Of a stretch of 64,000 bases of DNA, positions 14,544-45,100 are shown piece by piece. This DNA is from Bacteroidaceae bacterium (GTDB taxonomy: Bacteria > Bacteroidota > Bacteroidia > Bacteroidales > Bacteroidaceae). Both the position numbers and the translations under genes were made by a program. Positions within the stretch are counted from its first letter, which is position 1. Every line of letters begins with the position of its first letter. The stretch spans positions 33,419 to 97,418 of the forward strand of contig JAFUYM010000026.1 of assembly GCA_017470525.1 (NCBI GenBank). Direction: 5' to 3'. A model generated the notes under the pieces. The model did no database searches, was not told where the DNA came from, and saw only the letters and a list, made by a program, of their open reading frames with translations.

Positions 14544-14551
14544 TTCACCTG

Positions 14552-16554: not shown

Positions 16555-16570
16555 TAAAATCGATTACATT

Positions 16571-17170
16571 ATGAAAAAGTATATATTCTTCATCGCAACA
16601 TGTTTCATGTTTGGAACATCTGTATATGCTCAAAAGATAACATATAATAAAATGTATAATGGAGTGAATCGTTTATGCACTGAACCCCTTAAGATAAAAA
16701 TGGAAGATGACGTCCTATTTGCATTAAATATCTTTTTTGATAAAGAAAATTACGAATTCTTTATTGAGATAGGAACTGAGAAAGATAAAATGTACAATTT
16801 CCCAGAAGAAGCAAAGTTGTTATTCAAAACAATGGATGGTTCAGTTATTGAATTAAAATCATGCTATACGTACATAACAAAAGGAGTGGATTACAGACAA
16901 ATTGACTACAGAATTCCTGGCGCATATTATCCAATTTCTGAAAAACAACTACAATCTTTATTCACAGGAGTCTCGAAAGTTAGAGTGGAGTTACTATCTT
17001 ACAACAAAAAAGAGAAAACCATTTTCAAGGACTTTCAAGATGTTGAATATAAGAAAGATACATTTGGCAAATTCTTGCAAAAGTCATACACAAAATTAAT
17101 GACTGAAAAAAGCAAGATAGATAAACAAAATGCAGCATTGTTGAACAAAGATGCATCAGCAGATTTTTAA
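16571..17170 (+). CDS. Hypothetical secreted protein
   Basis: The start was moved to the Met at 16571 (MKKYIFFIATCFMFGTSVYA|QKI signal peptide), giving 199 aa. It lies in the AT-rich islet. No family was recognised. Confidence 0.55.
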   Translation: MKKYIFFIATCFMFGTSVYAQKITYNKMYNGVNRLCTEPLKIKMEDDVLFALNIFFDKENYEFFIEIGTEKDKMYNFPEEAKLLFKTMDGSVIELKSCYTYITKGVDYRQIDYRIPGAYYPISEKQLQSLFTGVSKVRVELLSYNKKEKTIFKDFQDVEYKKDTFGKFLQKSYTKLMTEKSKIDKQNAALLNKDASADF

Positions 17171-17191
17171 TAATCCTAAATACTTACGATT

Positions 17192-17662
17192 ATGAAAGTT
17201 ATAATAATTTCCTTATTTTTGGTGGCTGCTACAACTGCACAGGCGCAATTTGTACAGTACACGCCAGTTACAACACCAACTACACCTAAAAGTAATTCAT
17301 ATAGTTATTCAGACCCATTCAGTGATATTGATGCAGAAATAGCAAGGCATCATTATCAAAATCAAGTTGTGGAAAGTGATATTATTAATTCATGTGCTAT
17401 AAATCCTAATACTGGTAACGTCTATTCTATACAAGTAAAGACAGAAATGAAACGTAATGGAAATTACACTTTAAAATGTATAGGAATAAAGATGAATAAT
17501 AAATGGATAAGTTGCGAAAGTGATTTATCGGACTTGAGAGATGCATATAAAGAGGCTAAAACTCAATCTGATAAAAGTTTTCTGTTAGAACTAATGGAGA
17601 TAGCAAATTTTGCATTTATATATAACAAAACTCTCTATCTAATTCCAAAGCCTGAACAATAA
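17192..17662 (+). CDS. Hypothetical secreted protein
   Basis: 156 aa with signal peptide MKVIIISLFLVAATTAQA|QF. It lies in the AT-rich islet. No family was recognised. Confidence 0.55.
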   Translation: MKVIIISLFLVAATTAQAQFVQYTPVTTPTTPKSNSYSYSDPFSDIDAEIARHHYQNQVVESDIINSCAINPNTGNVYSIQVKTEMKRNGNYTLKCIGIKMNNKWISCESDLSDLRDAYKEAKTQSDKSFLLELMEIANFAFIYNKTLYLIPKPEQ

Positions 17663-17683
17663 CATCTAATGTATATAAAAAAT

Positions 17684-17719
17684 GGGGGCGCACCACAATG
17701 ATGTGCCCCCGTTTTCTTT
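17684..17719. terminator. Intrinsic terminator hairpin between convergent genes
   Basis: GGGGGCGCA (17684-17692) pairs with TGTGCCCCC (17702-17710). The hairpin is preceded by an A-run and followed by GTTTTCTTT. Confidence 0.6.
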
Positions 17720-17880
17720 CAAAGCAACAGATACATTGCCTCGTCCAATCTGATGGTTTCGACTTTTGGGAAGTCCAAATCTTTCAGTTCATTGTAGTGG
17801 CGGTCTTCAGTGACTATGAACTTGGCATTGGCAACTACGGCACAATCCACAAACTTGTTGTCAAGAACGAGACGTGCCAT
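17719..17880 (-). pseudogene. 3' remnant of a PIN-domain TA toxin
   Basis: This 53-codon ORF is below the track cutoff: MARLVLDNKFVDCAVVANAKFIVTEDRHYNELKDLDFPKVETIRLDEAMYLLL. It resembles only the C-terminal third of PIN-family toxins (the ...A.A.fLVT.D... segment), and the N-terminal catalytic part is missing. Confidence 0.5.
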
Positions 17881-17892
17881 CTTTGCTACAGA

Positions 17893-18111
17893 TTATGGTC
17901 TTGCATGAAAATCTTCATGGCGAAGGGCATCCAGCCGCTCTTGGTTCAAGATTCCCGCATTCCAAAGTCTGTCAGACTCAGCATCCAGTTTCTCCTGAAA
18001 ATGCTGGGTGAGCACTTTCTTTATTTCGAGAACAAACTCCTCGCTGTTGTTGAAGGAAAACAGTTTCAGAAGATGCATCTGAGTGGGGTTGAGCGTATTT
18101 GCTTGTATCAT
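17893..18111 (-). CDS. Small antitoxin-like protein (hypothetical), partner of the decayed PIN toxin
   Basis: 72 aa (MIQANTLNPTQMHLLKLFSFNNSEEFVLEIKKVLTQHFQEKLDAESDRLW...). It ends 12 nt upstream of the PIN remnant. The family assignment is from recollection only. Confidence 0.4.
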   Translation of the reverse strand: MIQANTLNPTQMHLLKLFSFNNSEEFVLEIKKVLTQHFQEKLDAESDRLWNAGILNQERLDALRHEDFHARP

Positions 18112-18603
18112 AATGAAAGAATGATGTTATGTGTTATCGCGTTGCAAAATTACAATCAATATTGCTATCCACCAAATTATTTCAACTTTTTTTCATAGAA
18201 ACCACCACACGACATACATGTACCACCTTTTTTATTCCCAACCAAAGGAAACCACAGATTTTTTTCAGATGAACAAATTTCCTTCAGCCAGGCACAGCAA
18301 CACACATCATTATATATATTCTCTTTTTTTCTTTTATTTTTAAAAACTTATTTGTTGATGTTAATAGTGTGTGGATAGTGTGGATAAGTTTTTGAAGTGG
18401 TTTGTTGTCAGTGGGTTAGGATGTTGGGAAGTGGATGAGAGGGTATTGAAAATTGGTGGAAAAAAAAGAATAAGTTTTTTTGGTGGTCTCGGAGGAAATG
18501 GGGTATATAAATCATTTTCGGATGGGCAAGAAAAGTTGTTAGAAGTTGTTATGAACTTATCAAGTGAATGTGAACAGGGTTGTTGACCGAAAGTGTTGAT
18601 AAG

Positions 18604-27469: not shown

Positions 27470-28255
27470 TTAAAGTGTACCGTTTTGCAGGTATTGCAAT
27501 AAAGTCTGTAGATTGGCATCTTTCAGCACCACTCGCTTCTGCTTGTCGAGCAAATAGAGAGTAGGGGTGAAAGGCACATAATACTCTGTTTTCAAATCTT
27601 CTTTCTTCATGCGCACCACGTTCAACAGAGGGTTCTGCATGATGAGTGGCTCCTGCTTCATTTGTGCCTCCAAGCGTTGGCAACGTCGGCAATCAGGGTC
27701 GTAAAAAATGAGCAACGTCTGTTCTCCCTCCATGCGATGAAGGTGTTTCCGCTTTCCATTGAGGTCAGTCACCATGATGTCAGTCGCCACCATGCCCACT
27801 TGATTCTTTGCCAATTGCTGCAAGAGCCATTCCCGCTGAGGAGTCTGTGGCAACGCGCGAAGCAGATGGGCATACACCACATCATTATGTAAGGGAGATT
27901 CGGGGTCAACCAAATAGCGTTCCATCTGTTCCGTAAAGAACGAAACACTCCCTGGATGCTTTGCCAAAGAGTCGGCAAAAACCATCGCCCCACGTGCAGC
28001 AGAAAGCGAGTCAGCATGCTGCATGAGATTCATGAAATCCACCATGCCCTGCTCTCCCACCTGACGATTCGTCGCCGTGCTGTCAGCAAACACATAATGC
28101 TGCCAAAAATGCTCCAGCATGTAACGGAGCCGCGCCTCAGGCTCCTCCATCTCATCGGGAATGTCAGGATAGGGAAAGGCTGCCTCCTGTGCCCTCACAG
28201 AGAGGACACAGCAAAGCAGCCCAATCATCATATAAATCTTACGTGCCATGTGCAT
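27470..28255 (-). CDS. Secreted DUF5106-like / thioredoxin-fold protein with CxxC motif
   Basis: 261 aa. The signal peptide ends VRA|QEA. The C-terminal TlpA-like fold has LLIFYDPDCRRCQ (CxxC encoded at 27680-27691). Its ATG overlaps the stop of the 2601-aa gene (TAATG). Confidence 0.7.
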   Translation of the reverse strand: MHMARKIYMMIGLLCCVLSVRAQEAAFPYPDIPDEMEEPEARLRYMLEHFWQHYVFADSTATNRQVGEQGMVDFMNLMQHADSLSAARGAMVFADSLAKHPGSVSFFTEQMERYLVDPESPLHNDVVYAHLLRALPQTPQREWLLQQLAKNQVGMVATDIMVTDLNGKRKHLHRMEGEQTLLIFYDPDCRRCQRLEAQMKQEPLIMQNPLLNVVRMKKEDLKTEYYVPFTPTLYLLDKQKRVVLKDANLQTLLQYLQNGTL

Positions 28256-31200
28256 TATGGCTCAGAAGTTGAGTCGGTGTTGGAGTCAGAATCAGAATTT
28301 GTCCCCGATGTGGTAGTAGCCTCCTTGCCGATGGTCACATGCGTATCGCCCGTCACCTCTGCATTGTTGCCGCCACCAAACACATTACCCCTAATGTCAG
28401 CACCTTCCACCGTATGGGTGCGTTCTGTATCTGTAGTATCTTCTTCCACTTCCACCTCTTCCTCTTCATTCTCACCATTCACTTTCTTTTTCACAGTCTT
28501 CTTGGCAGGTGTCATAAACACTTCACTCTCTGTCGTGCCAATGTTCACATACGTATCGCCATCCACTTTTGCCGCATTGCCACCACCAAACACTTTGTTG
28601 ATGGCACCAATCTTGTCAGCATCATGAGCAGGCAGAAAGACTGGGACTTTTTGGTTTTGAATGACGCGATTGCCGTCATCGTCATATTCAAAATCACCAT
28701 CCTCTGTGCGGACATATTCCTTAAATTCAATCTCCTTATGACCGATATGGTTTGCGATTGTAGTGCCATCTGTGTATGTATAGGAACCGTCTTTGTAATC
28801 ACCCTCACACACATTGATGTTCACATGTGTATCGCCCGTCACCACGGCAGTCTTACCATAACCACCGCCATACACCTCACCGATGCTGGTGAAAGAACGT
28901 ACATTGAGTGTAGGGCCATCTTTCCTTTCTGTCTTGGAACCATCTTTGAAAGGTGCCGTATAAGGAGCCTGATTGCCGCCACCATAAAGTTGTCCGATGA
29001 TGATAGGCTTACATCCCGTTTCCTCAATGTTCACCGTGATGGTGCCTTTGATGTCTCCTTTTACATTGTTGCCACCAAACACACGGTCGAACGTGCCGTT
29101 AGTGATGGTCAGATTCACATCGCCCTCTATTTGGGCATCCTCTGCACCACCGTATGCTACAGTCAAGCCCGGAATGCATGCCATCTCCAATCTTGATTCA
29201 GCATCCATCGACGCACTCTTGCCGCCTCCGTAAGCCTCATCCACATCGAAATCACAGCCACTCTCATCCTCCAGCATCGTCACAGCAGAAATACGCACAT
29301 TACCCTTCGTATTGGAACCGCCGTACACACGGTGTATCTTACCACCACGAATCTTCACGCGAGCCTCACCTGTGCCGTAAGTATATTTGTTGATAAATTC
29401 ATCTGTTTGTCTATCTGCCTTAGTAGGATACGTATCTTCTACGTCAAAGTAGTTCTTGAAACCTACATTAGCACCAGGGTTATCTGAACCATCAGGCAGT
29501 TTGTCCTTACCATTGCCACCGCCAAACACCTCGTCTATCTCATACGTTTCATCAATCTCCACCTGTGTGGCAGGAGTGGAAGCCGCATTGCCACCGCCAT
29601 ACACCTGTTGGATGCTGGTATATCCACAACCCTCGATGATGACTCTTGTGGAACCGTTTTCCAAATCTGTCGGTTCGTATGCCGCCATGTTGCCACCACC
29701 ATAAACGGCATGTAGGTCGTAGCGTCCAGGCACCTTAGCATTCGTCACAGCCGCTTTCCCTTCAGAAGCCGCAGCATTGGCAATTTGAGAAGCATCCTTG
29801 TTTTGTGTCTTATGAATATGTACGGTGACAGTACCCAGTGGCGATGTGTTCATGTTGTTACAACCGAAAATGTCGCCCAGCACCACACAACCCTTGTCTG
29901 TGTCCGCCACATTTTCGTTCAGGTCAACAGTGACGTTGCGAGAAATGCCCAAAGAGTTAGCCGTGTGATAGGTGTCATCGGTCGTGCCCATACCACCACC
30001 GAAGACGTTCTGATGGATGGTGCCACCCTTCAGAGCCACCGTGATGTTGCCGTGGTTTTCAGGATTGTCGGTGTGCAACTTACCATAGTTTGCTGCATTA
30101 GGATCAGTGAAGTAAGTACCCACCGAGGCAAGTTGCCCGCCGCCATAGACGGAACCTTTAATAGAACCATCCAAAATGGTAAGATTAATATTGCCACTCA
30201 CGACTCCAGCAGTCAGTGCGGTAGAGGAACCTTTACCACCACCAAACACATTCCCGTCGTAGCCAGAAGCACCGTCACAACCGATAACAGGCGCTGACTT
30301 TCCTTCACCTGTTTCTTTACTGATGGTCGTCATGGCATTATCCAATACGTGACCGTCCTCACCACTACCATAAACAGAGCCGTAGATGATGCCGCCAGTA
30401 ATCTCAATATCCACGCTTCCCACGTTGGTCATCGTATTGAAATAGGTACGCGGGTCGCCCTTTCCTGCACCAAAGAGGTTGCCAGTCATTGGATTTTCCT
30501 TAATCTGTTCCAAGGTACGCGGTACGCCGATTGTACCGCCAGACATTTTCACCGTACTTTTACCCTTAACGTCGGTATATTCATTAGCACCATAGACATT
30601 GGTCAAGATATGACCACCCTTGATTTCTACCAAGGTATTGCCCTCCACCCATCCTGCCGAACGAACCCATCCGTAGCCTGTACCATCACTCTTCTCGTAG
30701 GGGTAGTAGCCAGAGCCACCGCCGAACACACAGCCAATCCATGTTTTACCGTCAGAAGGATGCGAAGTGCTACCAGGGGAGAAGTCTTCGGGAATGTTAT
30801 CCTTGTATTTTCCTGTTACATAATATTTATCGTAGTATGGGTCGAAAGTTTCATATACCCATTCGGGGGACTCTGTAGTGCCAATATTCCTTCCGTAAGG
30901 GAAGTGAGAGCACTCGACCAGAGCATTCGAATCGGTGACAGGCGTTGTGAGAGGATTGATGAACTGTTCATCTTCATAGCGCTTGGGTTTGAGCACATCA
31001 TTCACGGTTTCTGTCTGGTTTTTTCCCACACCAATCTGACAGTCATCCTGAATCGTTACGTGCGTATTGCCAAGCACACGTCCGAACTCACCACCACCTA
31101 TGATGGACTCCAGAATGAAGGCATCACCGCCGACGGTCACATCGGTTTCATTAACGTAAGCAGTGAAGTGCGTATCTGGGTTATCCTCTGGGTCCTCGAT

Positions 31201-34200
31201 TAAACCTCTTCCTCCACCCCATATCCAGCCTTCCCTGACAGGACCACTTTCTCTTGTCATACCCTCTGTTGCCACCTCTATGGGACCAATCTGACCGCCA
31301 GTAACAACAATCGTACATTTGCCAGTGTTTTCTGCACATGACACAGGCTTGCCAATACAGTCGTCATGAGGAGTATGACCAAAGATTGTTACATCTGTTG
31401 CTGCCGTTGACCTTGTAAATGTTCCTACCGAACCGGAAAGTCCACCACCAAAGATACCGTTAAAGACATAACCGTCCTCCATCGCCACATAGGTATTGCC
31501 CATCACATCAGCCTCGTTGCCGCCACCATAGACACTGCCATTGATGGTACCAGCCAAGATAATGATGGTGTCATTGTCAAGCGACTTACTTTCATTACCA
31601 CCACCAAACACGTTTTCTTCTATTGTGCCACCGTCGATGGTGAGTTTAATGGCACCTGTCACGTTGCCCAAGGATGCCATCGTCTCTGTAGTTAATCCTG
31701 TCGAGAGGGTTTTGTTGGTAGGGTTATTGTCACCGAGTGTACCACCTGCCTGCCAGTTCCATGTTTCAGGGTCAACGGTTCCAAATTCGGTGAACAGAGC
31801 CATATCTGTCTTGTATATAGAGTATGTGGGTTGTGTGTCGGTATAGACTTTGATTTCGTTCGACTCAGCCTTGAAGCCACCACCGAAGGCACTGCCTTCT
31901 ACTGTACAGCCTGTTAATGTGGAGGTGACCGTACCATTCACCTTACCTTGACAACCAGCACCGTAGAAGTCTTTCAAAATGGTACAGCCATCCAGCACAT
32001 TAGTGACATTGCCAGTTGTGGCTAACGAGAACTGTGCATAGCCAGTATAGAAACGAGCCACAGCCTGGTAACCGTTGGAGTGGTAGATGTATTCCATTTT
32101 ATAGCAGGTGCCGATGCCATAGTTTTCCTTATTCGTCAACCGTTTGTAGTTGGTGAATGCTAATGGATAAATAATATCGTTATTAGTTGCAACAGTGTTA
32201 TTTTGGTCTTCACGGTTGTATGTAATAGACGTTCCTCCGAAGCCTGCTCCATAGTATTCACCAAAGGTGGTATTGATGGCATGGGTAGTGACGGTCTTGC
32301 CGTCGTTCATATCACCGAATTCGGGACCACCACAATAGAAATCGACCTTGCTGTTGTTGATGGTGATATCAATATCTCCCGTAATGGGGGCTGCAGCCGA
32401 GGTGCCGCCGCCAAAGAAGCGGCCGATAAGTGCATGGTCTATCTTGGCAGTCATATTGACACTTCCATCACTGGTTGACGTCTGTTTGGGCTTTTCCATA
32501 TATGCACCAAGGAATTTGCCAATCTTACCCCCTGCACACCAGAAACGGATGTCGCTACCCACTGCTGGACAATTGTATGTGTTATAGCCCGTCATAAAAC
32601 ATTCCTTCACCTCTCCGCCTACGACATTTATTGGAACGATGGTGGTGGTTCGTGCCGCATTGTCTCCAGTACCACTTCCCTGGTCAGAGTGTGCCCCAGG
32701 ATAAAGTTCCCCGACGTAAGCATTTCCACCTATTTTCAGATAACTGAGTTTGCTGCAATTAGTTCCCTTTGAACGGACAATCTGAACGAAATAACCACTA
32801 TTGATAACAACAGGATTGTTGCCTTTGCCATTATTGGTAGTAGTGTAATTACCAGAATCTATCTCCCACTGACTGGAGTAGAATACGCAGGTCTCAGTGA
32901 GTTCGAACCACCCACGGGTTTTCCACAGCGGTACACTGGGGTAGCCGCGACTACTTGTTAAGTGTGCTGCCATACCGACGGGCACGACAGGCACGAAATC
33001 GAAACGCACGGGAGGGATGCCTGGACGGCTGCTGCCATTGTGACTATAGAAACCATAGTCAGGTTCTTGGTTGTTGTCGGCATCAATGCTCATCAGCGTG
33101 AATGCCTTGGTATAAGCATCTATTGGACCATCGTTGAAGTGATAGTTGCCAACGAGCACGATGGCTTGGTCGTGGGGGGATGTAGTTGCGGTCATGGGAG
33201 AATCAGCACTCGTCAGCAGGGTCTTCAGATTGGTATAGACGGTCTGACCATGATAGGAACTTGGAACGGAGCCACCCAACTGTACAGGATTGGTGTATTG
33301 ATTTGAAGCGTACTGCAAGCCTATCTCATAACTGGGGTCGCTCAGATAATAAGCCTTAGCGAAGTTTGCCTCGATATTAATGGCAGTCACTCCATTGGGT
33401 ACAATATAATTGCCGCCTTGGGCAAAGATGTAACCAGTTGTGCTGTAAAGGTCTTTGGATGTGCAGTCACGGTCGGCAAAGTTATAATTGGTCAGTGAGC
33501 CTGCTGTACCACCACTGACAGAGATAATTTTCCACCCTGTGCATATCTTCGTATAGTCGGTGTTCACCTCAAACTCATTGGCGAAGGGCAGCACCACTTT
33601 GCCGTAAGTATAGTCATAATGCAAGGTGTCCATATCGGTAATGGGTAACTTTGCGCTGTATTTGCGACCGTTGATGGTGATGTTGGCTGTCAAGTAGCCA
33701 TTTGTACCACGGTCAGTGAGCACTTTACCCCCATAATCCCTTGTAGCAGTCGTAGTTGTGACCGTCGGTAAGTTGTCCTTCAGGTCAACAGTAATGCGCT
33801 TGGTATTGCTCTCCCATTCCTCTATCACAGGGTAGGGAGGAGTATCATCGCCTTGCTTCAGTACCCAGTGTCCAATTTCATCAATTTGAGTCGTTGTAAT
33901 TGCACTCACATAGTCGGTGCTCTCTTTGGCGGTGTTGGGTGCAAACAGAAAATAGGCAGCCAACTCGCGGTGGGTGTTCAATATATGACGATAGAAGGGG
34001 AAGCGCGTCAGATGCCATTCGTCAGAGATGGCAAGTTGGTCATTATAGTTACCTGAAGTGTAAGATAGGTCTTGAAGAACGATTTCTTCTTTTCCTTTCT
34101 CCTCATTAAAAACTCTTTTACTGTATAGCCAATAGTTATATTCCGTGAAGTTCTGTACGTTGCTGGTGTGGTTGCCTGTATAGACGGGTGAAATGGTCTT

Positions 34201-36060
34201 TGCTCCAGTGACATTGCCGTACATCATGCACATCGCAATACGAACATCACCCACTGTGCCCTCATTTTTACCTACGATACCAGCAGCATTGCTATTGCTC
34301 GTACCACTCACATTGGCATAGTTGTAGCAGTTGACCACACGCACCTTCGAGCCACTGCTGATGAGACCCACCAATCCACCGACATTGGTCTTACCGCTCA
34401 CCTTACCTGAAAGCACACCGCAATTGTATATTTTTGCTTCACCCTTGGCTTCATTGCAGATGGCTCCTGCATTGCCATTCGTGCTGATGTCAACACCTGA
34501 AAGCATCACGTTCTTTACCGTGCCACCATCGATAGTGCCGAACAGTGGTTTGGTGAGACCGCTAATGGTATAGTAGGAGCCATCGAGTGAGCCCATGAAG
34601 GTGACGTTACTTCCATCATACCCTTTAGCATCAATGTCGTTGGCAAGGATGAGGTCACCGTTCAAATTGTTGAGCACCTCACTGAGTGTACTGACAAAGA
34701 TTCCCCGACTGGCTTCCTTTTCAGCCACGCAAGAAGCACTGTAGCCCTCTTGTTTGGCGATTGCCATGATAGTAACTGTTCCCGTACCATTGCTGAGCGT
34801 AATAGGTCCATTATACAATGTCCCTGTAGTCTCTGAAGGTATTGTAGTTCCATCAGTCGTGTAACGGATAGTCCCTTCGCCGCTGATGGTGACAGTCTTG
34901 CCTTTCACACTGATGATGGGCATTGCCGTGGCTGGTTCATACGAGTATTCAGCCACAGAGGATGAACGTTCCAAATTAGCAATTGCTTTGATGGTACACC
35001 TCTCATCGTGTCTGAAGGGGCCTGTGTAGAGTGTGCCATTACTCAGTGTAGGTTTGCTGCCGTCGGTGGTGTAATAGATGGTATTGCCAGAAGCCGCTGT
35101 TATCGTGACGATGTTCGAGCAGTCACTTGATGAAGTGATGGTTGGCGGGTCGGGCGTACCCACAATCTGGTCTGCCACCTCCGACAACACCACACCATAA
35201 CGGGCAATCACAGCCTTGATGTGGCAATTGCTGATAATATGCTGTGGTGTGGTACCATCCCATGTGGTCACACCTGTACCGCCTACTGTGGGGTCATTGC
35301 CATTGGTCGTAAAGAGGAATGAGTAGCCATCAGGCAGAATGCTGTTAGGATAACTGAAGGTATAGGTTTCTGTCTCATCATTGATATGGATGGTGGGGGC
35401 AGGAAGTTTGGCTGTCTCAAGTTTCCAATTTCCGTCAGTATATAGACCCACCATACCTGAATGAAGATAAGTATCTGTACCATAATAACGGTTTTGATTG
35501 CCTCCAGCAGGATTGAAAAATCTGTTTCCCTTGTCCACATTTATCGGACGGAATGTATAATTGTCTGATCCTGCAATGTCAAATTTTGTGTTATTCCCAG
35601 GACTATCTAAAGACAAAAGGTGGATAGATTTTCGATTGGTTGCACTTTGGTAAGGAGGTTGATAAACAATATATTTACCCGTTGTGGCATGTATGATATT
35701 CCAATATCCGTCGGTGGATGGTGCTATAATCCACAATGAATTATTGTCTTTGTTTGTCTTATAGGTCGTCAAGAAAGGTTGCTCTGGATCGCCATAGTTG
35801 TCACCCGTATAGTCGCCATTTCCGCTTTGGTTGCAATATTGGTTATTGAAATATGCATCGGCAAAGTGGGACGTTTGTGGATCCTTGGCAGGTACAATAT
35901 AATAGTTTTTTGTAAAATCCATTGCATCATAGCCACTGCTCCACGCAATATGGTATATGCCACTCTGCCCCCATGCAAAATCCACAGTTACAGCCATCAT
36001 GACCAAAACAGCCATGAGTTTTCCTATGTAATATCTGCTTAAAAATCCTTGTTCTTTCAT
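28255..36060 (-). CDS. Giant secreted protein B (2601 aa): N-terminal globular modules, chitobiase/Fn3-associated-like repeats, GLUG module, C-terminal [YF]GGG beta-helix-like repeats; no T9SS CTD
   Basis: A single uninterrupted ORF. The signal peptide is ...VDFAWG|QSG. Modules include NTIYYTTDGSKPT and GTIRYTTDGTTIPS, and a GLUG-like segment NVGGLVGLISSGSKVRVVNCYNYANVSG. About 30 motifs such as NVFGGGNESK, SVYGGGNEAD, QVYGGGNAAS and KVFGGGNAAKVDGDTYVNIG follow. The protein ends in TTTSGTNSDSDSNTDSTSEP. Confidence 0.85.
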   Translation of the reverse strand: MKEQGFLSRYYIGKLMAVLVMMAVTVDFAWGQSGIYHIAWSSGYDAMDFTKNYYIVPAKDPQTSHFADAYFNNQYCNQSGNGDYTGDNYGDPEQPFLTTYKTNKDNNSLWIIAPSTDGYWNIIHATTGKYIVYQPPYQSATNRKSIHLLSLDSPGNNTKFDIAGSDNYTFRPINVDKGNRFFNPAGGNQNRYYGTDTYLHSGMVGLYTDGNWKLETAKLPAPTIHINDETETYTFSYPNSILPDGYSFLFTTNGNDPTVGGTGVTTWDGTTPQHIISNCHIKAVIARYGVVLSEVADQIVGTPDPPTITSSSDCSNIVTITAASGNTIYYTTDGSKPTLSNGTLYTGPFRHDERCTIKAIANLERSSSVAEYSYEPATAMPIISVKGKTVTISGEGTIRYTTDGTTIPSETTGTLYNGPITLSNGTGTVTIMAIAKQEGYSASCVAEKEASRGIFVSTLSEVLNNLNGDLILANDIDAKGYDGSNVTFMGSLDGSYYTISGLTKPLFGTIDGGTVKNVMLSGVDISTNGNAGAICNEAKGEAKIYNCGVLSGKVSGKTNVGGLVGLISSGSKVRVVNCYNYANVSGTSNSNAAGIVGKNEGTVGDVRIAMCMMYGNVTGAKTISPVYTGNHTSNVQNFTEYNYWLYSKRVFNEEKGKEEIVLQDLSYTSGNYNDQLAISDEWHLTRFPFYRHILNTHRELAAYFLFAPNTAKESTDYVSAITTTQIDEIGHWVLKQGDDTPPYPVIEEWESNTKRITVDLKDNLPTVTTTTATRDYGGKVLTDRGTNGYLTANITINGRKYSAKLPITDMDTLHYDYTYGKVVLPFANEFEVNTDYTKICTGWKIISVSGGTAGSLTNYNFADRDCTSKDLYSTTGYIFAQGGNYIVPNGVTAINIEANFAKAYYLSDPSYEIGLQYASNQYTNPVQLGGSVPSSYHGQTVYTNLKTLLTSADSPMTATTSPHDQAIVLVGNYHFNDGPIDAYTKAFTLMSIDADNNQEPDYGFYSHNGSSRPGIPPVRFDFVPVVPVGMAAHLTSSRGYPSVPLWKTRGWFELTETCVFYSSQWEIDSGNYTTTNNGKGNNPVVINSGYFVQIVRSKGTNCSKLSYLKIGGNAYVGELYPGAHSDQGSGTGDNAARTTTIVPINVVGGEVKECFMTGYNTYNCPAVGSDIRFWCAGGKIGKFLGAYMEKPKQTSTSDGSVNMTAKIDHALIGRFFGGGTSAAAPITGDIDITINNSKVDFYCGGPEFGDMNDGKTVTTHAINTTFGEYYGAGFGGTSITYNREDQNNTVATNNDIIYPLAFTNYKRLTNKENYGIGTCYKMEYIYHSNGYQAVARFYTGYAQFSLATTGNVTNVLDGCTILKDFYGAGCQGKVNGTVTSTLTGCTVEGSAFGGGFKAESNEIKVYTDTQPTYSIYKTDMALFTEFGTVDPETWNWQAGGTLGDNNPTNKTLSTGLTTETMASLGNVTGAIKLTIDGGTIEENVFGGGNESKSLDNDTIIILAGTINGSVYGGGNEADVMGNTYVAMEDGYVFNGIFGGGLSGSVGTFTRSTAATDVTIFGHTPHDDCIGKPVSCAENTGKCTIVVTGGQIGPIEVATEGMTRESGPVREGWIWGGGRGLIEDPEDNPDTHFTAYVNETDVTVGGDAFILESIIGGGEFGRVLGNTHVTIQDDCQIGVGKNQTETVNDVLKPKRYEDEQFINPLTTPVTDSNALVECSHFPYGRNIGTTESPEWVYETFDPYYDKYYVTGKYKDNIPEDFSPGSTSHPSDGKTWIGCVFGGGSGYYPYEKSDGTGYGWVRSAGWVEGNTLVEIKGGHILTNVYGANEYTDVKGKSTVKMSGGTIGVPRTLEQIKENPMTGNLFGAGKGDPRTYFNTMTNVGSVDIEITGGIIYGSVYGSGEDGHVLDNAMTTISKETGEGKSAPVIGCDGASGYDGNVFGGGKGSSTALTAGVVSGNINLTILDGSIKGSVYGGGQLASVGTYFTDPNAANYGKLHTDNPENHGNITVALKGGTIHQNVFGGGMGTTDDTYHTANSLGISRNVTVDLNENVADTDKGCVVLGDIFGCNNMNTSPLGTVTVHIHKTQNKDASQIANAAASEGKAAVTNAKVPGRYDLHAVYGGGNMAAYEPTDLENGSTRVIIEGCGYTSIQQVYGGGNAASTPATQVEIDETYEIDEVFGGGNGKDKLPDGSDNPGANVGFKNYFDVEDTYPTKADRQTDEFINKYTYGTGEARVKIRGGKIHRVYGGSNTKGNVRISAVTMLEDESGCDFDVDEAYGGGKSASMDAESRLEMACIPGLTVAYGGAEDAQIEGDVNLTITNGTFDRVFGGNNVKGDIKGTITVNIEETGCKPIIIGQLYGGGNQAPYTAPFKDGSKTERKDGPTLNVRSFTSIGEVYGGGYGKTAVVTGDTHVNINVCEGDYKDGSYTYTDGTTIANHIGHKEIEFKEYVRTEDGDFEYDDDGNRVIQNQKVPVFLPAHDADKIGAINKVFGGGNAAKVDGDTYVNIGTTESEVFMTPAKKTVKKKVNGENEEEEVEVEEDTTDTERTHTVEGADIRGNVFGGGNNAEVTGDTHVTIGKEATTTSGTNSDSDSNTDSTSEP

Positions 36061-36169: not shown

Positions 36170-39100
36170 TTATTTCACCATCAGTTTATGCTTGTTGACA
36201 ATATAGACACCTCCCATCGGAACTTGTGTCTCAATGGTTTCGCCTGGCTGGATCGTGAAGGAGGCTATGGTCAAACCACCCGTGTTGACAATGGTCACGT
36301 TGGTGGCTGTGCGGAGTGATGAGGTGACGCCGATGAGGTGCTTCTTGGTGTAGAAGGTCAGGCTGCCACTGGCTTCGCCTTGGGTCGGGTCATTGTCATC
36401 GAAGTCGAATGAGGTGTCGTCGCTCTTATCGAATATGATATGCTCTACCATTTGTCGAGGTTTTGCCGAGGCTGTACCCGCAATGAAGTATGGGCGGAAC
36501 GGAACGGCTGCTATAGCAGTTTCAGTCTTGTCGAAACTGCTGCCCTCTGTGTCGAGCAGATAGCCTTCCACCTCTTTGCTCAAATAGTTTGGCACGAAGG
36601 TGTAGCCATCCTTTGCCGCTTTTTTCATTTCGTCGTCGCTGACATGGATTGTCTCACCCTCTGCAGAAACGAAGGTGATGGTTTGTTTATCCAGTTTTTC
36701 AGGATTGCTCTCGGCTGTGGTCAAGGCTCTGAAGTTGCCGCTCAAGTCGAACTCATAGTAAGTCTGACCAGGGAATCCGATGAGGTAAGGTGTGTCGGCA
36801 GCCAGCAATGGGTAGCCATCATATTGGCGTGACGGCTGCTGATAGTAAGTTTGGTAGGTGTCACCGTTGAGGTCTTTCTGGGCGTTCTTGCTGTAGTAGT
36901 AGTCCCACAGGAAGGTGTTGGTCACCGTCTTGGGGGTGGTTTGTTGAGCGGGGTAATCGAACAGGGCAGTAAAGACATTGTTGTCGCTAATTTTCTTGCC
37001 CTTGTACTCCCGCAGCCAGTACTCGTGTCCCTTCAAACTGCCATCATAGAAGTGGGTCAACTCGCCCTTGTTTTGGGTGGTGACAAGTTCGGCGGTGAAT
37101 GGAATGCTGATTGCCTCCCAGCCCTTCGTCAGGTCAACGAAATTGTCTGGTGTGCGCTGATACCACATACGGTAGTCGCCCATGCGGTATTCGATAGGCG
37201 CATTGAAGTCTTCCTTATCAACGAGCATGTGGTCGTTGGGGGCAACATAGCCATCGTCTGCCAATTGCACTCTATGACCATGTATGTTGTCTTTATAGGT
37301 GTCCCATGGTGCCACTGTGCGATAGGTCGCACGGCGAGTCTCCACGTATGCCTCATCGTACAGATAAGTGCCTACCACATTGTCTGTCTGTGTGTCGGCT
37401 TTGGTATAGACGAGCAGGTTTTTGGTCAGGTCAATGTTCTTGATGCTACAGATACCATTATCATCAAGCAGAGGTTGATAGAAAAGTTGCCCATTGAATC
37501 CTTGTCGATAGGTCGCATCGCCATATCCGGTGAAGTCAATCGCTGTCATGTTGGGGTAGGCTGTATGTGCTTTGTCTTTCGATTGAGCAGCCAAGAGCAC
37601 ATCTGGATTGAAGTGTACTGCCCCCATCTGCTTGCTTTGGAAATAAGCAGGTGCGCGATAGACACGGTTGTTACTTGTGATGTGTGTCGGCAACTCATCG
37701 TGTGACGACGATTCATCGTCTGGCTTCGTTGAATCTTGTGACGGCGTTGAGTAGTAGCCGTATGTAAGCCTCTGTCCGAAGAAGAGATAGTCATCAGGCC
37801 AAATCGGGGCATAGACAGGGGTGACAGCCGCACCTTCCGTTTGAGTTCTCATGCGGATGTCGCTGCTTTCAGGAAGTTTTCCGTTAGCATAGATGAAGTC
37901 CACGTTGGCATAGCGTCTCTCCACATAACCCAAGTCGCCGTATTGAGCATTGTCGCTGGTCAGAACAGGATAATAAATCGGACTCATTTCCTCCGACAAG
38001 GTGCCATCAGCGTTGGTGGTGAGGTAGTTGTATTCTGTATCTCCTGTCTGTTGGATGCCATCGTAGTAGCGGCGTTTCAGATAGAAGCCATTGAGGTTGT
38101 ATGCCACTTCGCCATTGTAGAAGGCTTGTGGTGTCTTTGGGATAGGTATGCCATAGTTGCTGCTGTGGTTGGTGTACTTGTTGGCAGCATCCTTTTCTTC
38201 AGCATAATAGCAGTTCACGATACGGTAAGGACGTGTATCGTTGAGGTTTGTAGGTTCGCCAAAGACGGGCTTGGTCGTCTTGGGTTCTGTGCTGGTGGTG
38301 CTTATCCAACAGTTTTCCACATAACCGCTACCTTTCTCTGCAATACCGGCTCCTGTGAATGTACCAGTGACTCCAAGGTTATAGACATCACTGCAGAGAG
38401 AGCCAAACAACGAGTGGTCAAGACCACTAATGGTATATCCGTCGCCATGGAAGGTACCAGCAAAGCATTGGGAATCATTGCCAATGGATGTCCATGAGCC
38501 AGGATGGTCAATGTCGGTGCGGAGGAAGAAATCAAGGTTCTCACCACCTTTCACATTTTCATTCAGCAAGGCGTGACCTTCGGTGGCTCCGCTGTTTGCC
38601 ACAGAAGTTTGGCAACTGAGGTCGAAGAAGTTCTTTAGTATGTCGAGACCATTCTTGTCGTCGTCACTATAATCGTTGATGTAGATTTTGCAGTGGCGCG
38701 TCAATTTGGCAGGGTCATAATCTACATACATGTGGTGCTCTGTGTCTGCCATCACGTTTGCCATGTCGTGGTAGTTTGCCACGCTGAGCGGCACGGAGTT
38801 GGAGTAGGTCTTGCCCAGATAAGTCTTGGCATAATAAGCCACGTAACTCCGTTGGTTCTGGTACCAATAGACTTGAGTCTGGTTGGGTGTGAAAGGTTTT
38901 CCGTTGCGGTGGTTTTCGGCATCGGTCTTATTGTCATAGATTTCCCATCCACCACCGATGATTTCGAAGGCACCTGGAATGATGGGTCGGGGTTCCTTTG
39001 TTCCCACGGTGTTTCCTGGCAGTACGGTAGATGGAGGTGTCAGTGTGCCGACAGATGGCACACCGCTCTCGAACTGTACGTGTATGTTGATGACGTGCAG

Positions 39101-42100
39101 TTCGTTGACCAATTCCACGTTCTCGCCAGAGTCATCACCTTCGTTGTAGGTATATTGATAGATGACACTATAAATGCGTTCCTTCGACAGGTCGTTGATG
39201 TCGCTTTCTCGTGCCACATAGAGTGTGGTAGTCTCAGTAGGCTCCATTCCCTTGATGAGGAAGTTCTTCTGCAAGTTCGGCAAGTTCTTATACTCTTCCT
39301 TGGTGATGAACGTGCCTTTAGGTATGGTGTTGCCTACATAGTATTTCTTGCTACCATCGAAGACATCTGTATAGACGACTTCATTTGTTCCATTTCGCTT
39401 CTGTTCATCCGTGTAACCACCTTTTTCGCCGACTACAAAGTCTTCTCGACAATAGAAGTAGTACACATATTCGTCGTCGTTTTGTGTGGTATTAAGGAAC
39501 TTCTGCACTTCTATGTATTCCTCTCTTTCTGTTCCAGTCAATGCTCGATAGACACTTGCACTGACAAGTTGTCCTACCTCGTATGGAATGTCGGCACGAA
39601 CAAACCGTTTCTTCACGATGTAGTAGTCTTCACCTTCATCGTTTATCAATTCAGCAGGAGTCTTCGTCACCTTGATGGGTGTGAAGTGATATTGCTCATT
39701 GGCAATATACTTTTCATAGTCCACATTTGTCAGTTCGGGGTTCGTCTCATTGACAACTGTAGGTGTCGTTTCTCCCTCTTTTGTAAAGGAGATGCTTGTC
39801 AAGTCATCGCTTGCCTGGAACATGGCAGTGTATTCCACTGGGTAGGTCTTGCAATAAGGTTCGCCATATCTGTACAACTCGCCATTATCGTTCAGACCGC
39901 CATTTTCTCCTGTTGTGCGTCCCCTGAAATCTGGGTCGATGAGCAGGTCAAACGCATCGCCATTGAATAGGAAGTGCTTTCGGTCTTCTGATGAGAGTGA
40001 GCACCATGAATCAATCGGGCTATAGTTCGTATTGCTGCTGAAGATTTTGCCGCCATAAAGACCTGCAGCATCGCAGTAGTAGGCAGGAGTCAGATAGCCT
40101 TGAATGAGTTCCTCGCCTTCTGCCTTCAGCCGTGCCTTTTCAGCATTTCTCTCTTCTTCTGTTGCTGTTTCAAATTTCTTTTCGTCGAAGTGTCCGTCCA
40201 CGTAGGTGAGTGCCAAATTCTCTATATCGGGGCTTGTCACTACATCGCCGACGAAGAGGTATGCATTTTCCGCAAGTTGTACGGTGTTGGTGCATACTTG
40301 AGCCTGTTCCAGTTTATTTTTGGTGCTCTCGTCAAGACGATTGTAGATGGTTTCAGAAATCGCTGTGCCTGAAGGGAATGTGCCCTCATGCGTTTCTCCA
40401 TGTTCATCAGTGTAAGAATATTCCACCTCATCCGTTTTGGCAGCATACGCCTTCACCACCTTTGCCTGTCCCTCTTGATTTTCCAGTGATTCTGGGTAAT
40501 TTTCGACAACGACTTCTGGAATGACCTCGCCTTGTTCATAGTAGCGTTGACCGTATGGCGTACTCTCTGTGGCTGTTGTACGGAAAGTGGGACCCTGTAT
40601 GTATTTGATGCTGTCTGCATGCGTTGTCAATGCCGCATAATCAGGAGTGTTGATGCTGCTGGGAGCACCCTCAATGAGCGAGTACCACTTGTTCCAGTCT
40701 TGAGGACTGTCCATCTCGAAGGTGAGCACATAGCCATTGGAAGAACTCATGTTGTTCGACGAATGGTACACCTCGTCAGCCTCCACCCATTGCTGTTTCG
40801 TTACATCATAGAGTGGATGCTGGATGGTGACAGATTGGTCATCAATGGTGACAATTTTTGCAGATAACCCGTTCACGAAATTATTGTATGCCGATGGTGT
40901 CATCACTTTTCCTGCCTTGATGGTGTCGGTAGATGTTTCAGACAGGGTGTAATCGGTTACGCTGACCTTCGTTTCTGGCACAAACACCTTTTGGTCGTTC
41001 TCGTTGAGTTGGCTGTAGTCCCAGTAACTGATGACATCGTTCAGGAGAACAGTTCTTGTGTTGTTTTCGATTTTCGTGCTGTCAACAATTGCTTCGGTTT
41101 GCTGACCATTCTTCCAATAAGCATAAAGATTAGGCTGCACGTTCAACAATGTCAGTCGTCCGTGAGAACCAGGCGTGATGGTGAGTGGGATTTTTTCTTG
41201 CTTAGGATAAGCGTTGGCACTTCCTGTGTAGGCTGAGATAATCTGGTCGTAGATGTAGATATTACCTTTGACGAACCAGTAGTGCGCCTTTGAATAGTTC
41301 TCTTTTGTTGGGTCGTATTCTGCATTGTTGGGGTAGCAATCGTCAATGATACGTTTATGGCTGTCGTGGATAAAGTTACCCGAAGTTTGAATGATTTCCA
41401 GGTTCTGTTCGTCGTAGGTGTATCGTTTGTAGGTGACAACGTTCTGGTTGTAGGGAGAAAGCGTGACATTCTCTGCATCTTCGTGGAAGGTGGGCGTTCC
41501 ATGTTCGTTCTTGGCATAGATATAGCCACCGCCCACTTCGTCAGTTTTGGCATTGATGAGGTCGAGTTCCACTACACCTGTGATGTAACCATAGTCTTTT
41601 TCATCCTTCGTGCTATTTTCGGTGGTCAGTTCGAGGAACACACCAGATGCCAATGCCACTTCGTTATGACAAGTTCCCACATTGCGTTTGCGGTTGTTGT
41701 GGTTGGTTTGCTTCCATTGGTAGTAGGTAGTCGTTCCGTCTGTGTCGTTGGTGTCGGAGGTGCGAACGTGTTCCATCTTCACGTCGCTACTCAAATTACC
41801 TAAATAATTCACCAAACTATAAATACCGAAGTAGTTTCCGTGTGACTTGCTTGCATCATCGGTATCATTCGCAGTGGTTGCTTGTGAATGGAGTGACAGT
41901 TCGCCCACACGATTGAGGGTGTAGCGCGTATAGTCAGCCACATCCACCACGCGGTCACGTGCTCCCATCAGCACGATACGAGAACCATACACACCGCACA
42001 AATCGGCTCGCTGGATGGTGTTGAGCAATCGACCTGCATAAATGGAGCAGACACCATCGGTTGTCCAATACTCATCACTTTGATACTCATCTTCCAAATC

Positions 42101-45100
42101 TTCATATTCCTCTTGGTAAATGGGGTCACCCACATTGTATGCTTTATGAAAGATACCATAATTATCCGTATAAGAAGCAATATACTTCTTGCAAGTATAG
42201 CGCAGACGGAAGTAAGCCTTTTCGCGGTCAGTTAAACGATAGTACTGTTCCAGAGGAATGGTTTGAGTCAGTCCATAGTAGTCGGTGCCGTAGTTGGCGA
42301 TGTGCAATTCGCGATAGCCATCGACCAACGACAAGTTGCCACCTCCATAAAGACCACCCACACGTTCATAACCCACCGTGATGAGGTCGCGATGATAGAC
42401 ATCGCGCAGAGTCGCCGTCACATTGCCAAACACGGTGGTGGCATTCGCATAGATTTGATCGGAACCTGACGACACATTGCCGCCACCGAATACTGCATTG
42501 TGGATAATGATGCCTGTATCGTCGAGTTTCGCCCACTTGGCTCGGTCACTTTCCAGTAACAGATGGTTGTATGCGTTCGTATTTTCAGTAACTCCACTGC
42601 CGATGTTGCTGATGTCGTTCTTGCCTTTCAGGGTGTTCAAAGTATCGGTAGGGACATATTGACCAGGCAGATAGTCATGACCGCCAATCGTCACCACACC
42701 TGTCACAGCAGTCTCCTCATCGTTTGTCTTGTCATCGTCGTTGTTGCGAGGATTGGTGATATCCTTCCATGTCTTCTTCACTTGGGCGTATGGCTCAATC
42801 ACCACCTTGCAGTCCTCCGTCAGGTGTCCGTCTTTTTTGTAATAATAGTGACCAGGAGAGCCCGTTGTCTCCGTATAGTCTGCTTCGCCATTGCCATACA
42901 CATAACCAATGTCGCCGCCACCAAACACGTTGCCGTAACCTTCGTCAATTCCATCGATGGTACCGATTTCACCGCCATGGATATAGACCTCCGTTTGTCC
43001 AAACACGTAACCATCCGTATAAAGTTCGTGTCCCACTCCGTATCTCAACTTGTTGTAGCCTTTGCCACCGCCAAACACGTTGCGCAACACATGACCGTTG
43101 TACATCTCAATATGTGTTCCGCCATGTCTGTAGATTTGGTCTAACTCGCGTATGACACCTGTTTTCTGTTTGGTTGCACCACGTCCTACTGTGGCGATTT
43201 CGCCACCACCGAAAAGACCATTGCGAATCACGCCACCATACACCTTGACATTGGTGTAGTCGCATGTGCTCAAGTCGTCGTAACCACCGCCAAATGCGTT
43301 CCCGCAGTCTTCCAGTCGAGTGTTAGGAGTTCCCAGAGGGTGGGTTTGGTCATGCCATGTTTCGTCGTAGATTTTCTCCTTATAAGGTTTTTGGGTATCT
43401 TGGGGGTCGTAATAATAGCCGATGTAGCCATTATTGATGGTGAGATTGGCTGTGCCATAGATGGAGCCACCTTCGCCACCACTAAAGGCATTACGTTGGA
43501 TGGCGGGCACACCTCTATAGTAAGTCAAGCCTGTCTCGTCCAAATCTCCACGAATACCGATGATGACATTTGTCACCGCAAGCACGTCGTTATCCCAAGC
43601 GGCACTGAGTGCCCCTTCATGCTTACCTACGTGACCCTGATAGCCACCACCATAAACATTACGTACTGTACCACCTTCGATATAGACATTGGTGCTTGCT
43701 GTGAAGGTCGAGTCGGTTTTGCTTTCATACTTGTTGAGCACGGAACCACCATAGCCAGAGCCGTAGAGGTCTTTGGCAACAGTGCCGCCGTGCAATCCGA
43801 TGTAGGTTGTTCCGCTGACATTGGCAGTAGAACCAAACCCACCACCATAACAATAGCCACCGCTAAGGTCCCCCTTGTAATAGTAGCCACTCACACTGCC
43901 ACCCTGATTGATGTTGACGTTGGTGTTGGTGATGCTGCCCAATCGGTTGGGTTTGACAAGTTTACTTTCTATTTTCTGTAAGTCTGCTTCGGTATAGTTA
44001 TCGATGGCTGTATAGAGTGTTTTCTCTTGTTCTTGCTCTTGTGCTTTCCATTTTGCAACAGATGCCTTGTTGAGCACCATGCCCGCATTGCCACCTCCGT
44101 ATGCTTCATAGACCTTTGCACCGTCGTTGAGGTTCACCACGGTATATTCTGACCAGGTGTCCTGACCATAACCTGCTCCAAAGACCGTTCCATAATATTC
44201 CTGCTCTTTATCATAGAAAACAGGAGCATTGATGTTGACAAAACTGTAGAGGGTGCGGCGGTAGTTGTTGTTACCACCATAAATACCATCACGATAATTA
44301 CCCACAAGTGCTTGGTTGCTGCTGAAATTTACATGGGCTTCAATCACATCGCAGGGTACGCTGTTCTTTATGCCGTATGCACCGCCAAAGATGCGGTTCA
44401 TCTGGATGGTAGAACCACTGGGCACATTGACCACAGTGCGCCTCGTGATGCCTTCCTCATAACTGGCACCGTAGGCTGCATTAATCCGCCCATGAACAAG
44501 GTCGATGATGGCTGAGGCTCTGTCAGGATTTTCTTCCACAGAAAGACCATCAGGATTCTCGTCGTCTTTATCCTTTTTGACACCCATGCCCAATCCACTC
44601 CAAGCACCTGCACCAAACACTTCCATGTTCTGATAGTTGTTGGTCATGTCTTGCGGAATGTCGATGAGCACATAACTACGTTCTTGCATTACGTCGCGGT
44701 CTCCGTCGCCAGGATAGCCCTGTCCTGCACCGTACACTTTTTCCACATAGTTATACTCGTTGGTTTTCAGTTCGCTGGTGGAAGTGGGTCGGAAATTGAT
44801 GAACGCATTGCCCATGCGAGGTTTGGTAAAGCCTTCCTTGGCATTCCCATTCTCATCAGTATATTGACGGAATTTTTCATCTTTATAATTATAGGTGCCG
44901 AAGCAGCCACCGAAGATACCTAACGCACGTCCTTGTCTATATTCTATGTATGCCGAAGCAGTCAGCACGTCGGGGGCAGTATTCCCAGGGTCTGTTTCTG
45001 TACTTGCCTGATAGCCATACACCATGCCCAGTGTCTCCTCATCGCGAACTTGGTCTTTGAAACTCTTTTCGTTCAAAATTCTACCACCCAAGTCATTGCC

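Follow-up and report, generated by a model that had tools for sequence, protein, structure and literature searches.

Giant B, a giant beta-solenoid protein of gut Bacteroidales without a sorting domain, and its possible docking on a T9SS-addressed neighbour

The locus of giants A and B

A 64,000-nucleotide stretch from a Bacteroidaceae bacterium (NCBI GenBank assembly GCA_017470525.1, contig JAFUYM010000026.1, positions 33,419 to 97,418; "the window" denotes this whole stretch) encodes two very large proteins on its minus strand, giant A (3965 amino acids, aa) and, directly downstream, giant B (2601 aa). Giant A qualifies, by homology, as type IX secretion system (T9SS) cargo with a type A C-terminal domain (CTD), while giant B has no CTD. 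Comparison with related loci supports, but does not prove, that giant B docks end to end onto giant A, with giant A providing T9SS export and anchoring.

The open reading frame (ORF) of giant B has an ATG start and is intact, as the first-pass annotation had read it. The identical protein is encoded in a 119-kb ENA rumen-type contig and in an independent Logan assembly, so that giant B is not an assembly artefact, and the surroundings are ordinary chromosome (metK, hemD, groEL, ribD, a DEAD-box helicase gene and similar genes). A homologue search recovered more than 600 relatives of 1450-4550 aa in Prevotella, Prevotellaceae and Bacteroidaceae assemblies. This large family is essentially unannotated, its members being labelled "chitobiase C-terminal domain-containing" or "hypothetical" in databases. 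The features of giant B, from the N- to the C-terminus, are:

28255-36060, minus strand: giant B, complete ORF including the stop codon, ATG start, 2601 aa
35968-36060, minus strand: signal peptide, aa 1-31, predicted cleavage between AWG and QSG, read from sequence
35410-35964, minus strand: beta-trefoil lectin-like domain, aa ~33-217 (weak Pfam match, Foldseek)
34705-35397, minus strand: three immunoglobulin (Ig)-like CHB_HEX_C_1/Fn3_assoc modules, aa ~222-452 (Pfam, model, Foldseek)
34201-34692, minus strand: GLUG / IgA1-protease N-terminal-like module, aa ~457-620 (Pfam, NCBIfam, PDB, Foldseek)
32461-34143, minus strand: central domain, aa ~640-1200 (strong family conservation)
28315-32460, minus strand: beta-solenoid shaft, aa ~1201-2582 (motif counts, AlphaFold2)
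28423-28509, minus strand: acidic patch at aa 2518-2546, a disordered loop that lies between the last two rungs
28321-28422, minus strand: conserved last rung at aa 2547-2580 (..GADIRGNVFGGGNNAEVTGDTHVTIGKE), where docking is proposed
28258-28320, minus strand: Ser/Thr/Asp tail at aa 2581-2601, disordered, without family conservation

N-terminal modules of giant B

Giant B begins with MKEQ..LMAVLVMMAVTVDFAWG, and cleavage is predicted before the following QSG. The proposed signal peptide is plausible. Signal peptidase I of Bacteroidetes typically cleaves before Gln, a pattern that this site fits, the W-G-Q motif is kept in the family consensus, and aa 1-31 are modelled with a pLDDT below 50 by AlphaFold2 (AF2). 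The N-terminal region behind it had been described as Trp/Tyr-rich and perhaps lectin-like. Indeed, Trp and Tyr make up 12% of aa 33-215, as against 6.5% of the whole protein, and Pfam returns a weak match to RicinB_lectin_2 (E 0.008, 17.3 bits, under the cut-off of 25.6), with PF14200 precomputed for several homologues. In the AF2 model of aa 1-1200 (46-sequence alignment; mean pLDDT 81, pTM 0.68), aa ~33-217 match beta-trefoil lectins in Foldseek searches, namely 3pg0 (ThreeFoil, TMt 0.72), 1t9f (0.63), MOA and Cry78Aa. A ricin-B-type lectin is recognised by the beta-trefoil fold, (QxW)3-like repeats and sugar-binding residues, of which the model suggests the fold.

The next region comprises three modules of the CHB_HEX/Fn3 type, as had been counted before. 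Pfam assigns two stretches to CHB_HEX_C_1/Fn3_assoc (E values of 1.6e-20 and 2.9e-17, with 73.3 and 62.8 bits where the cut-offs are 23 and 22). A further stretch at aa ~222-300 (FLFTTNGNDPT) is divergent and takes up a beta-sandwich fold in the AF2 model, so that the count of three is correct. The whole region matches Fn3/Ig tandems in Foldseek. Giant B carries at least one PF13290 or PF13287 domain over the gathering score, the mark by which the family name is given, and NCBI names its homologues accordingly, for a domain that covers ~8% of the protein. It is followed by the GLUG module, on which Pfam, NCBIfam, PDB sequence and fold searches agree, in line with the earlier reading: Peptidase_M26_N matches aa 457-549 (E 1.8e-10), ZmpA of NCBIfam matches aa 487-605 with 36 bits against a cut-off of 3000, and IgA1 protease 6XJA is both a PDB sequence match (E 9e-6) and the top Foldseek match. 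Pfam finds the N-terminal region of the M26 family in giant B and no M26 catalytic domain, and the HExxH motif is absent from the protein.

The earlier list of modules left out the central domain, where conservation within the family is highest, with 50-56% identity even to relatives that consist of little more than the N-terminal half of giant B. Invariant residues include an acidic cluster (D993, D995, E999, P1000 and D1001), and a VLVGNYH motif is also present. Pfam and PDB sequence searches yielded no match for this domain, for which an enzymatic or Ca-binding role is conceivable. Giant B contains 35 Cys, many of them invariant in the family.

The solenoid shaft and its conserved end

The glycine-rich turns of giant B all lie within aa 1216-2561. 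They number 17 by the strict motif [YF]GGG and 27 by the relaxed motif [YFW]G[GASC][GANSC], so that the initial estimate of about 30 [YF]GGG turns agrees with the relaxed motif and not with the strict one. AF2 models aa 1402-2601 as a single long rigid solenoid (pLDDT 82, pTM 0.85). Foldseek returned nothing significant for the shaft in the PDB, the best neighbours being beta-helices of autotransporters and two-partner secretion (TPS) proteins with E values of 0.29 or worse.

The acidic patch and the Ser/Thr/Asp tail, both pointed out before, are present and predicted to be disordered: the patch is modelled at a pLDDT below 50 and varies within the family alignment, and the tail reaches about 40 (below 50 at aa 2583-2601). 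The last rung between them is modelled at pLDDT 84-92, with no ordered residues beyond it and no cap. This way of ending is a family trait, since 115 of 121 members terminate 20-55 aa past the last GN[VI][YF]GGG, that is, one rung further on, with the consensus G[AV]DIRGNVYGGGNNAEVTGxTxVxIGKK. In 100 of these 115 relatives the tail after the consensus is 0-3 aa long.

Missing export signals and the question of truncation

A type A CTD is a C-terminal beta-sandwich of ~70-100 aa that matches a CTD model and carries ending motifs of the GxY..K..V.K type. No match of giant B to the type A models (TIGR04183, Por_Secre_tail) was found in Pfam or NCBIfam, whether with the whole protein or with its C-terminal 149 aa, for which E values up to 1 were admitted and neither database returned any match at all. 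The type B CTD, a "gliding motility-associated" domain (TIGR04131), was likewise not matched in NCBIfam by these 149 aa, nor by the whole protein at an E limit of 0.1. There is no Cys near the predicted cleavage site and hence no lipobox, and the fold consists of trefoil, Ig-like modules and solenoid and is not that of a pilin, a class marked by a lipobox, an Arg/Lys processing site and C-terminal donor strands. Type V secretion passengers combine a beta-helix with a 12-strand barrel at the C-terminus or a TPS domain at the N-terminus, and in giant B Pfam detects no barrel, Autotransporter, TPS or related domain. The observation of the first-pass annotation that giant B lacks CTD, lipobox and barrel is thereby borne out, and the CTD-less ending extends to the family: a CTD occurs in 0 of 79 B-like ORFs, taken as ORFs with the central domain of giant B in related loci, which bears on the question whether orthologues ever carry one.

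The absence of any outer-membrane targeting signal could be read to mean that giant B stays in the periplasm, is not made, or is what decay has left of a formerly CTD-bearing gene, in each case with no role at the surface. We regard this as very improbable. The 7.8-kb frame is intact and the same in both assemblies, hundreds of relatives have conserved termini and many invariant residues, and its lectin, Ig-like and GLUG modules are of types usually seen in surface proteins. Furthermore, the ATG of the next gene overlaps the stop codon of giant B by 1 nt, which leaves no space for a lost CTD; the overlap is also present in Prevotella communis (locus L003). A 3'-truncated pseudogene, which had been named as one outcome that would overturn the proposed partnership with giant A, is ruled out by this overlap and by the same kind of terminus throughout the family.

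Giant A, a partner that starts with a rung

Giant A is encoded immediately upstream of giant B, and the features that bear on the relationship of the two proteins are:

36170-48067, minus strand: giant A, 3965 aa, directly upstream of giant B with a 109-nt gap
47933-48010, minus strand: first rung of mature giant A at aa 20-45 (QRAITIGGNVYGGGNAGNLGGSTSVT), proposed to accept giant B
38180-38539, minus strand: GLUG-like module of giant A, aa 3177-3296 (BLASTP to giant B alone)
36173-36397, minus strand: C-terminal domain of giant A, a short-loop variant of the type A CTD (..GGVYIVNKHKLMVK; homologue alignment)

The sequence of giant A itself has no Pfam or NCBIfam match and misses TIGR04183. 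Homologues were collected with its last 1000 aa, and with its first 450 aa against 1.84 billion representatives. Eight of nine homologues of the C-terminus match TIGR04183 (E 2e-7 to 4e-4; three over the curated cut-off), and nr lists one under the name "T9SS type A sorting domain-containing protein", so that giant A qualifies through them as CTD-bearing T9SS cargo. Automatic annotation would overlook it, as its CTD escapes TIGR04183 and Pfam while its homologues match.

The first 450 aa were matched by 464 proteins, most of them about 3700-4500 aa long. Among 116 representatives that start with Met, 89 have a signal peptide ending in Ala/Gly-Gln and, 2-9 residues on and within the first 90 aa, the motif Gx[VI][YF]GGG; the modal start is a signal peptide ending in AQ followed by IxIGGNVYGGGN. 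The full-length representatives finish in a CTD. Since the rung motif directly follows signal peptide cleavage, mature giant A opens with an uncapped solenoid strand.

That the start of giant A and the end of giant B share a repeat type, as first noticed from the two sequences, was confirmed in both. The similarity between the rungs is weak (BLASTP, 27-36% identity, E about 1e-5), and a second shared element is the GLUG-like module, for which aa 467-589 of giant B align with aa 3177-3296 of giant A (33% identity, E 1e-4). Lectin and CHB_HEX modules are absent from giant A. The mirror-image architecture once ascribed to the pair is thus approximate: it stands for the two shared module types, rungs and GLUG-like module, and was overstated for the remainder.

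One helix distributed over several genes

Related loci provide a further indication of how the chains of this family may be joined. Loci without an upstream A-like gene mostly encode short relatives of 1450-1900 aa, which correspond to aa 1 to ~1529 of giant B. Such head-only relatives (L080, L081, L016, L021, L010, L066, L072 and L062) end in ..GNVFGGGNKAxVxGSATVNIxE directly before the stop codon, and are followed by separate giant shaft genes, homologous to aa ~1470-2580 of giant B, whose products start with a signal peptide ending in Q and continue with GVVVHGNVFGGGN. Shafts with a rung at their start and the terminal rung of giant B at their end are found in L010 (1214 aa), L062 (3766 aa), L076 (2872 aa) and L067 (678 aa). 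Head and shaft are always parted behind the TxVxI strand, and the following chain restarts at the xIxIG strand. Giant B can accordingly be described as a head-plus-shaft fusion, its two parts having split homologues elsewhere, and the splits indicate that the family routinely spreads one helix over several secreted chains.

The geometry of a junction between giants B and A is similar: about 30 residues lie between the GGG motifs of the conserved end of giant B and the mature start of giant A, and the internal spacing of GGG motifs has modes at 25-27 and 31-35. In L016, L021, L010, L066, L030 and L075 two tandem heads precede a single shaft, which suggests that they are alternative tips for one stalk.

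The head-to-tail stacking of the two giants that the first-pass annotation had put forward is partly supported by these sequence patterns, namely the rung-first starts of the A-like proteins and the split head and shaft genes. Of the features expected of the proposed split fibre, a conserved open C-terminal rung, a partner whose helix runs from mature position +1 and conserved adjacency are present; a physical end-to-end contact would be the fourth.

Co-occurrence of A-like and B-like genes

A scan of one genome per species yielded 573 stretches that encode giant B relatives, nearly all from metagenome-assembled genomes of ruminant or other gut Prevotellaceae and Bacteroidales, in which the family is common. 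Of 63 loci from different species with enough flanking sequence, 49 have a CTD-encoding A-like gene upstream on the same strand as the B-like gene, mostly adjacent and in some with one or a few genes between; the CTD is present in all 49 A-like ORFs, defined as ORFs with the C-terminal region of giant A. Whether the two giants always occur together, a question raised with the original proposal, is answered in part: an A-like gene is found upstream in these 49 loci and not in the other 14. Both the last rung of giant B and the first rung of giant A fall within the retrieved flanks only in the window and in L049. The same arrangement is found in cultured Prevotella communis, with genes for a 4027-aa A-like and a 2423-aa B-like protein, and in one further contig. 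Both the pairing and the termini of giants A and B are conserved in many Prevotellaceae and Bacteroidales of rumen and gut.

Several loci contain additional elements. L061 (5903-28588), L064 (6263-30040), L043, L069 and L031 contain B-like ORFs with 5900-7900 aa, roughly threefold the size of giant B; where complete, they still finish in a rung-like motif, while those of L043 and L069 are cut at one locus end. Proteins of ~370-520 aa are encoded between the A-like and B-like genes in L010 (2648-5529), L023, L036, L051, L052, L058 and L064, and a 473-aa gene (2929-4350) precedes both head genes of L080. In L010 and L080, where the C-termini were inspected, these proteins have a T9SS-CTD-like ending (..GIYI.NGKKVVIK). 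Genes of the BT4734-like_N/VapE-like/DUF5906 type adjoin fibre loci in unrelated contigs (L004, 19073-21016; L080, 568-2667; L081, 6936-9780), and may be mobile-element remnants or reflect a functional link; a DUF6078 gene is also found in L080 and L081.

The loci without an A-like gene raise the alternative that giant B is exported and displayed without giant A, by way of an unrecognised T9SS signal in the terminal rung, outer-membrane vesicles or another translocon, with the adjacency of the two genes reflecting shared regulation or a shared target. The strong conservation of the terminal rung would suit this explanation, as the rung could itself be the signal, and so would the 14 loci, the weak similarity between A and B, and the variety of the B family, which ranges from ~1450 to more than 7500 aa and comes in several gene arrangements. 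However, known T9SS signals are folded domains of ~70-100 aa, and none fits past the last rung of giant B. Independent export also leaves unexplained why the helix of A-family and shaft proteins runs from mature position +1 onwards, and why separate head and shaft genes are broken at the same point of the rung. We consider it unlikely, without being far-fetched.

A model for docking and export

The observed module anatomy, termini, adjacency and fission pattern agree with a reading in which giant B is the distal adhesive subunit of a multi-polypeptide surface fibre, docked onto the T9SS-addressed chain of giant A. This reading is possible, and we hold it with confidence just short of even; we infer the contact between the two giants, the timing of docking and the co-export from the comparisons above. 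Giant B would be exported by Sec to the periplasm and fold there, in keeping with its 35 Cys and with the translationally coupled gene for a thiol-disulfide oxidoreductase. Its uncapped C-terminal rung would then dock on the uncapped N-terminal rung of mature giant A, so that one continuous beta-helix would span the two chains, and the CTD of giant A would carry the A-B complex through the T9SS. After removal of the CTD, giant A would be fixed at the surface by the usual C-terminal glycan linkage or, alternatively, be incorporated like Mfa5 into a filament of the upstream lipoproteins described below. The end product would be a rod of outer membrane, A and B, with the lectin at its far end and a length of tens of nanometres, as roughly estimated from about 4.8 Å per rung.

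Several points weigh against docking and co-export. We know of no CTD-less protein that is carried through the T9SS by a partner, a T9SS effector review contains none of the six phrases on co-secretion or CTD-less cargo for which it was searched, and searches of the literature on the giant B family or on T9SS piggyback export returned nothing relevant. The genes of the window include no T9SS machinery, and its presence in the host is deduced from the CTD of giant A. The loci that lack an upstream A-like gene are mostly head-only types in other arrangements, and those with two heads per acceptor end leave the stoichiometry ambiguous. The sequence similarity of giants A and B is weak, and no natural B-A fusion exists among 120 B-family and 150 A-family proteins, so that these sets offer no Rosetta-stone link; the fission observed is between head and shaft, not between B and A. 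In giant B itself the 21-aa disordered tail, which is unusually long, sits at the proposed interface. Finally, the conserved termini could just reflect constraints on solenoid folding or nucleation.

If docking of giant B onto giant A is correct, a single T9SS-addressed base would explain how very large CTD-less proteins arrive at the surface, and the known range of T9SS cargo would be widened. It would also allow adhesive tips to be swapped naturally on a common stalk, which bears on the attachment of Prevotella to plant fibre, mucus and cells. A broader proposal, made tentatively and with some doubt, is that these loci encode modular fibres, in which separate giant beta-helix chains are joined end to end, with interchangeable lectin heads, optional shafts and one T9SS-signalled base that carries CTD-less hitchhikers. 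Such fibres would be the first case of this mechanism for type IX secretion and a new principle of adhesin assembly. For annotation, the rule would be to match genes that "end in a rung" to genes that "start with a rung".

The upstream operon and other neighbouring genes

The first-pass annotation missed that a minus-strand cluster, opened by a DUF3575/OmpA/TPR protein, has giants A and B as its last large genes; the pilin-like lipoproteins of this cluster offer a second possible route of anchoring. Together with the gene downstream of giant B, the cluster contains:

56042-57580, minus strand: DUF3575/OmpA/TPR protein (Pfam)
48104-57580, minus strand: upstream operon genes, that is, the DUF3575/OmpA/TPR protein and five lipoproteins (624, 583, 383, 594 and 418 aa)
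27470-28255, minus strand: DUF5106 and thioredoxin-fold protein with CRRC motif and signal peptide (Pfam DUF5106, E 2e-27; Thioredoxin_2)

The order of DUF3575 gene, lipoproteins and A is kept in divergent metagenome loci (L082-L085 and L049), in which the last lipoprotein is just 30-38% identical. Invariant in the lipoproteins are the lipobox Cys and, ~34 residues on, a Thr-Arg, and their Trp-containing C-terminal strand is conserved, traits that we take to recall type V pilins. No pilin or other known family or structure was matched in Pfam, in NCBIfam, by phmmer against the PDB, by a 30-sequence profile against the PDB or by Pfam searches of all 30 members; an identification as type V pilins is thus unsupported by any sequence search and stays conjectural.

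Type V pili polymerise through donation of a C-terminal strand, and giant B, perhaps with giant A, could in the same way be attached to a type V-like pilus of the upstream lipoproteins, its own C-terminal strand being donated to a pilin groove instead of stacking on giant A. The position of both giants at the close of this operon, the conservation of its order, the pilin-like traits of the lipoproteins and the precedent of Mfa5, a T9SS protein on such a pilus, would be in line with this arrangement. We nevertheless judge it improbable: the lipoproteins, as putative pilins, match none by sequence, a type V subunit that donates just its C-terminal strand occupies the base of the pilus, a place ill-suited to an adhesin, and not its tip, and pilus attachment gives giant B no route across the outer membrane.

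The DUF5106 thioredoxin, whose ATG overlaps the giant B stop codon, was considered as a universal partner of giant B and rejected, since it lies downstream in merely ~11 related loci. Elsewhere in the window, a stretch at ~14000-18500 has a GC content of 35-42%, compared with about 48% in the remainder, and may be an island; its ORFs at 15655-16554, 17192-17662 and 17698-18198 have no Pfam match.

Comparison with known systems

Individual parts of giant B resemble proteins of other secretion pathways. With the streptococcal M26 IgA1 proteases of the ZmpA family it shares the N-terminal GLUG region, at aa ~457-605 or ~6% of giant B, and differs from them in having neither the M26 catalytic domain nor HExxH. 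Hap, Haemophilus IgA1 protease, pertactin, EtpA and HxuA display adhesive or enzymatic modules on long right-handed beta-helix rods, as giant B may do with its own modules, and such proteins are the nearest, if non-significant, structural neighbours of its shaft. Unlike these autotransporter and TPS adhesins, it possesses no C-terminal barrel or TPS domain, and the export signal is of the T9SS type and located on the partner. The [YF]GGGN rung is not a Pmp or PATR repeat, as it has no Pfam or NCBIfam match.

For the proposed junction, the closest analogies are open-ended beta-solenoid chains that join rung to rung, as in curli, where CsgA adds to CsgB, and in bactofilin filaments. The joining of B to A, or of head to shaft, would follow the same principle, while no sequence or structural relationship of the giants to curli or bactofilins was found. 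Curli and bactofilins are homopolymers of small subunits, whereas a hetero-oligomer of giant, Cys-rich and probably pre-folded chains is proposed here, and curli subunits cross the outer membrane unfolded via CsgG.

Among T9SS-dependent proteins, Flavobacterium SprB and Aureispira GhpA form very large, repeat-rich surface fibres of Bacteroidota, as is proposed for giants A and B. The Ig-like region of giant B matches GhpA fragments in Foldseek (9g8b, 9flw and 9flx; E 6e-5 to 9e-5), a resemblance of generic Ig-like repeats only. SprB and GhpA carry their own CTD on the same chain, which giant B does not.

Mfa5, a large accessory protein in the Mfa1 (type V) fimbria of Porphyromonas gingivalis, has its gene at the 3' end of the fimbrial operon. 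It is exported by the T9SS in a CTD- and PorU-dependent manner and then placed at the pilus tip; the N-terminal halves of Mfa5 are variable, and there are tandem copies (PMC8512630). Cargo of the T9SS in Prevotella intermedia is anchored after cleavage and glycosylation at its mature C-terminus (PMC11969387). Giant A occupies the same position in its operon as Mfa5 and carries a type A CTD. In contrast to Mfa5, giants A and B are beta-solenoids without a von Willebrand factor A domain, the lipoproteins upstream of them match no known pilin by sequence, and giant B would be a CTD-less partner of a kind not described for Mfa5. The system of giant B is accordingly placed among the T9SS-associated giant surface adhesins, from which it is set apart by a helix split between chains and by a CTD on one chain only.

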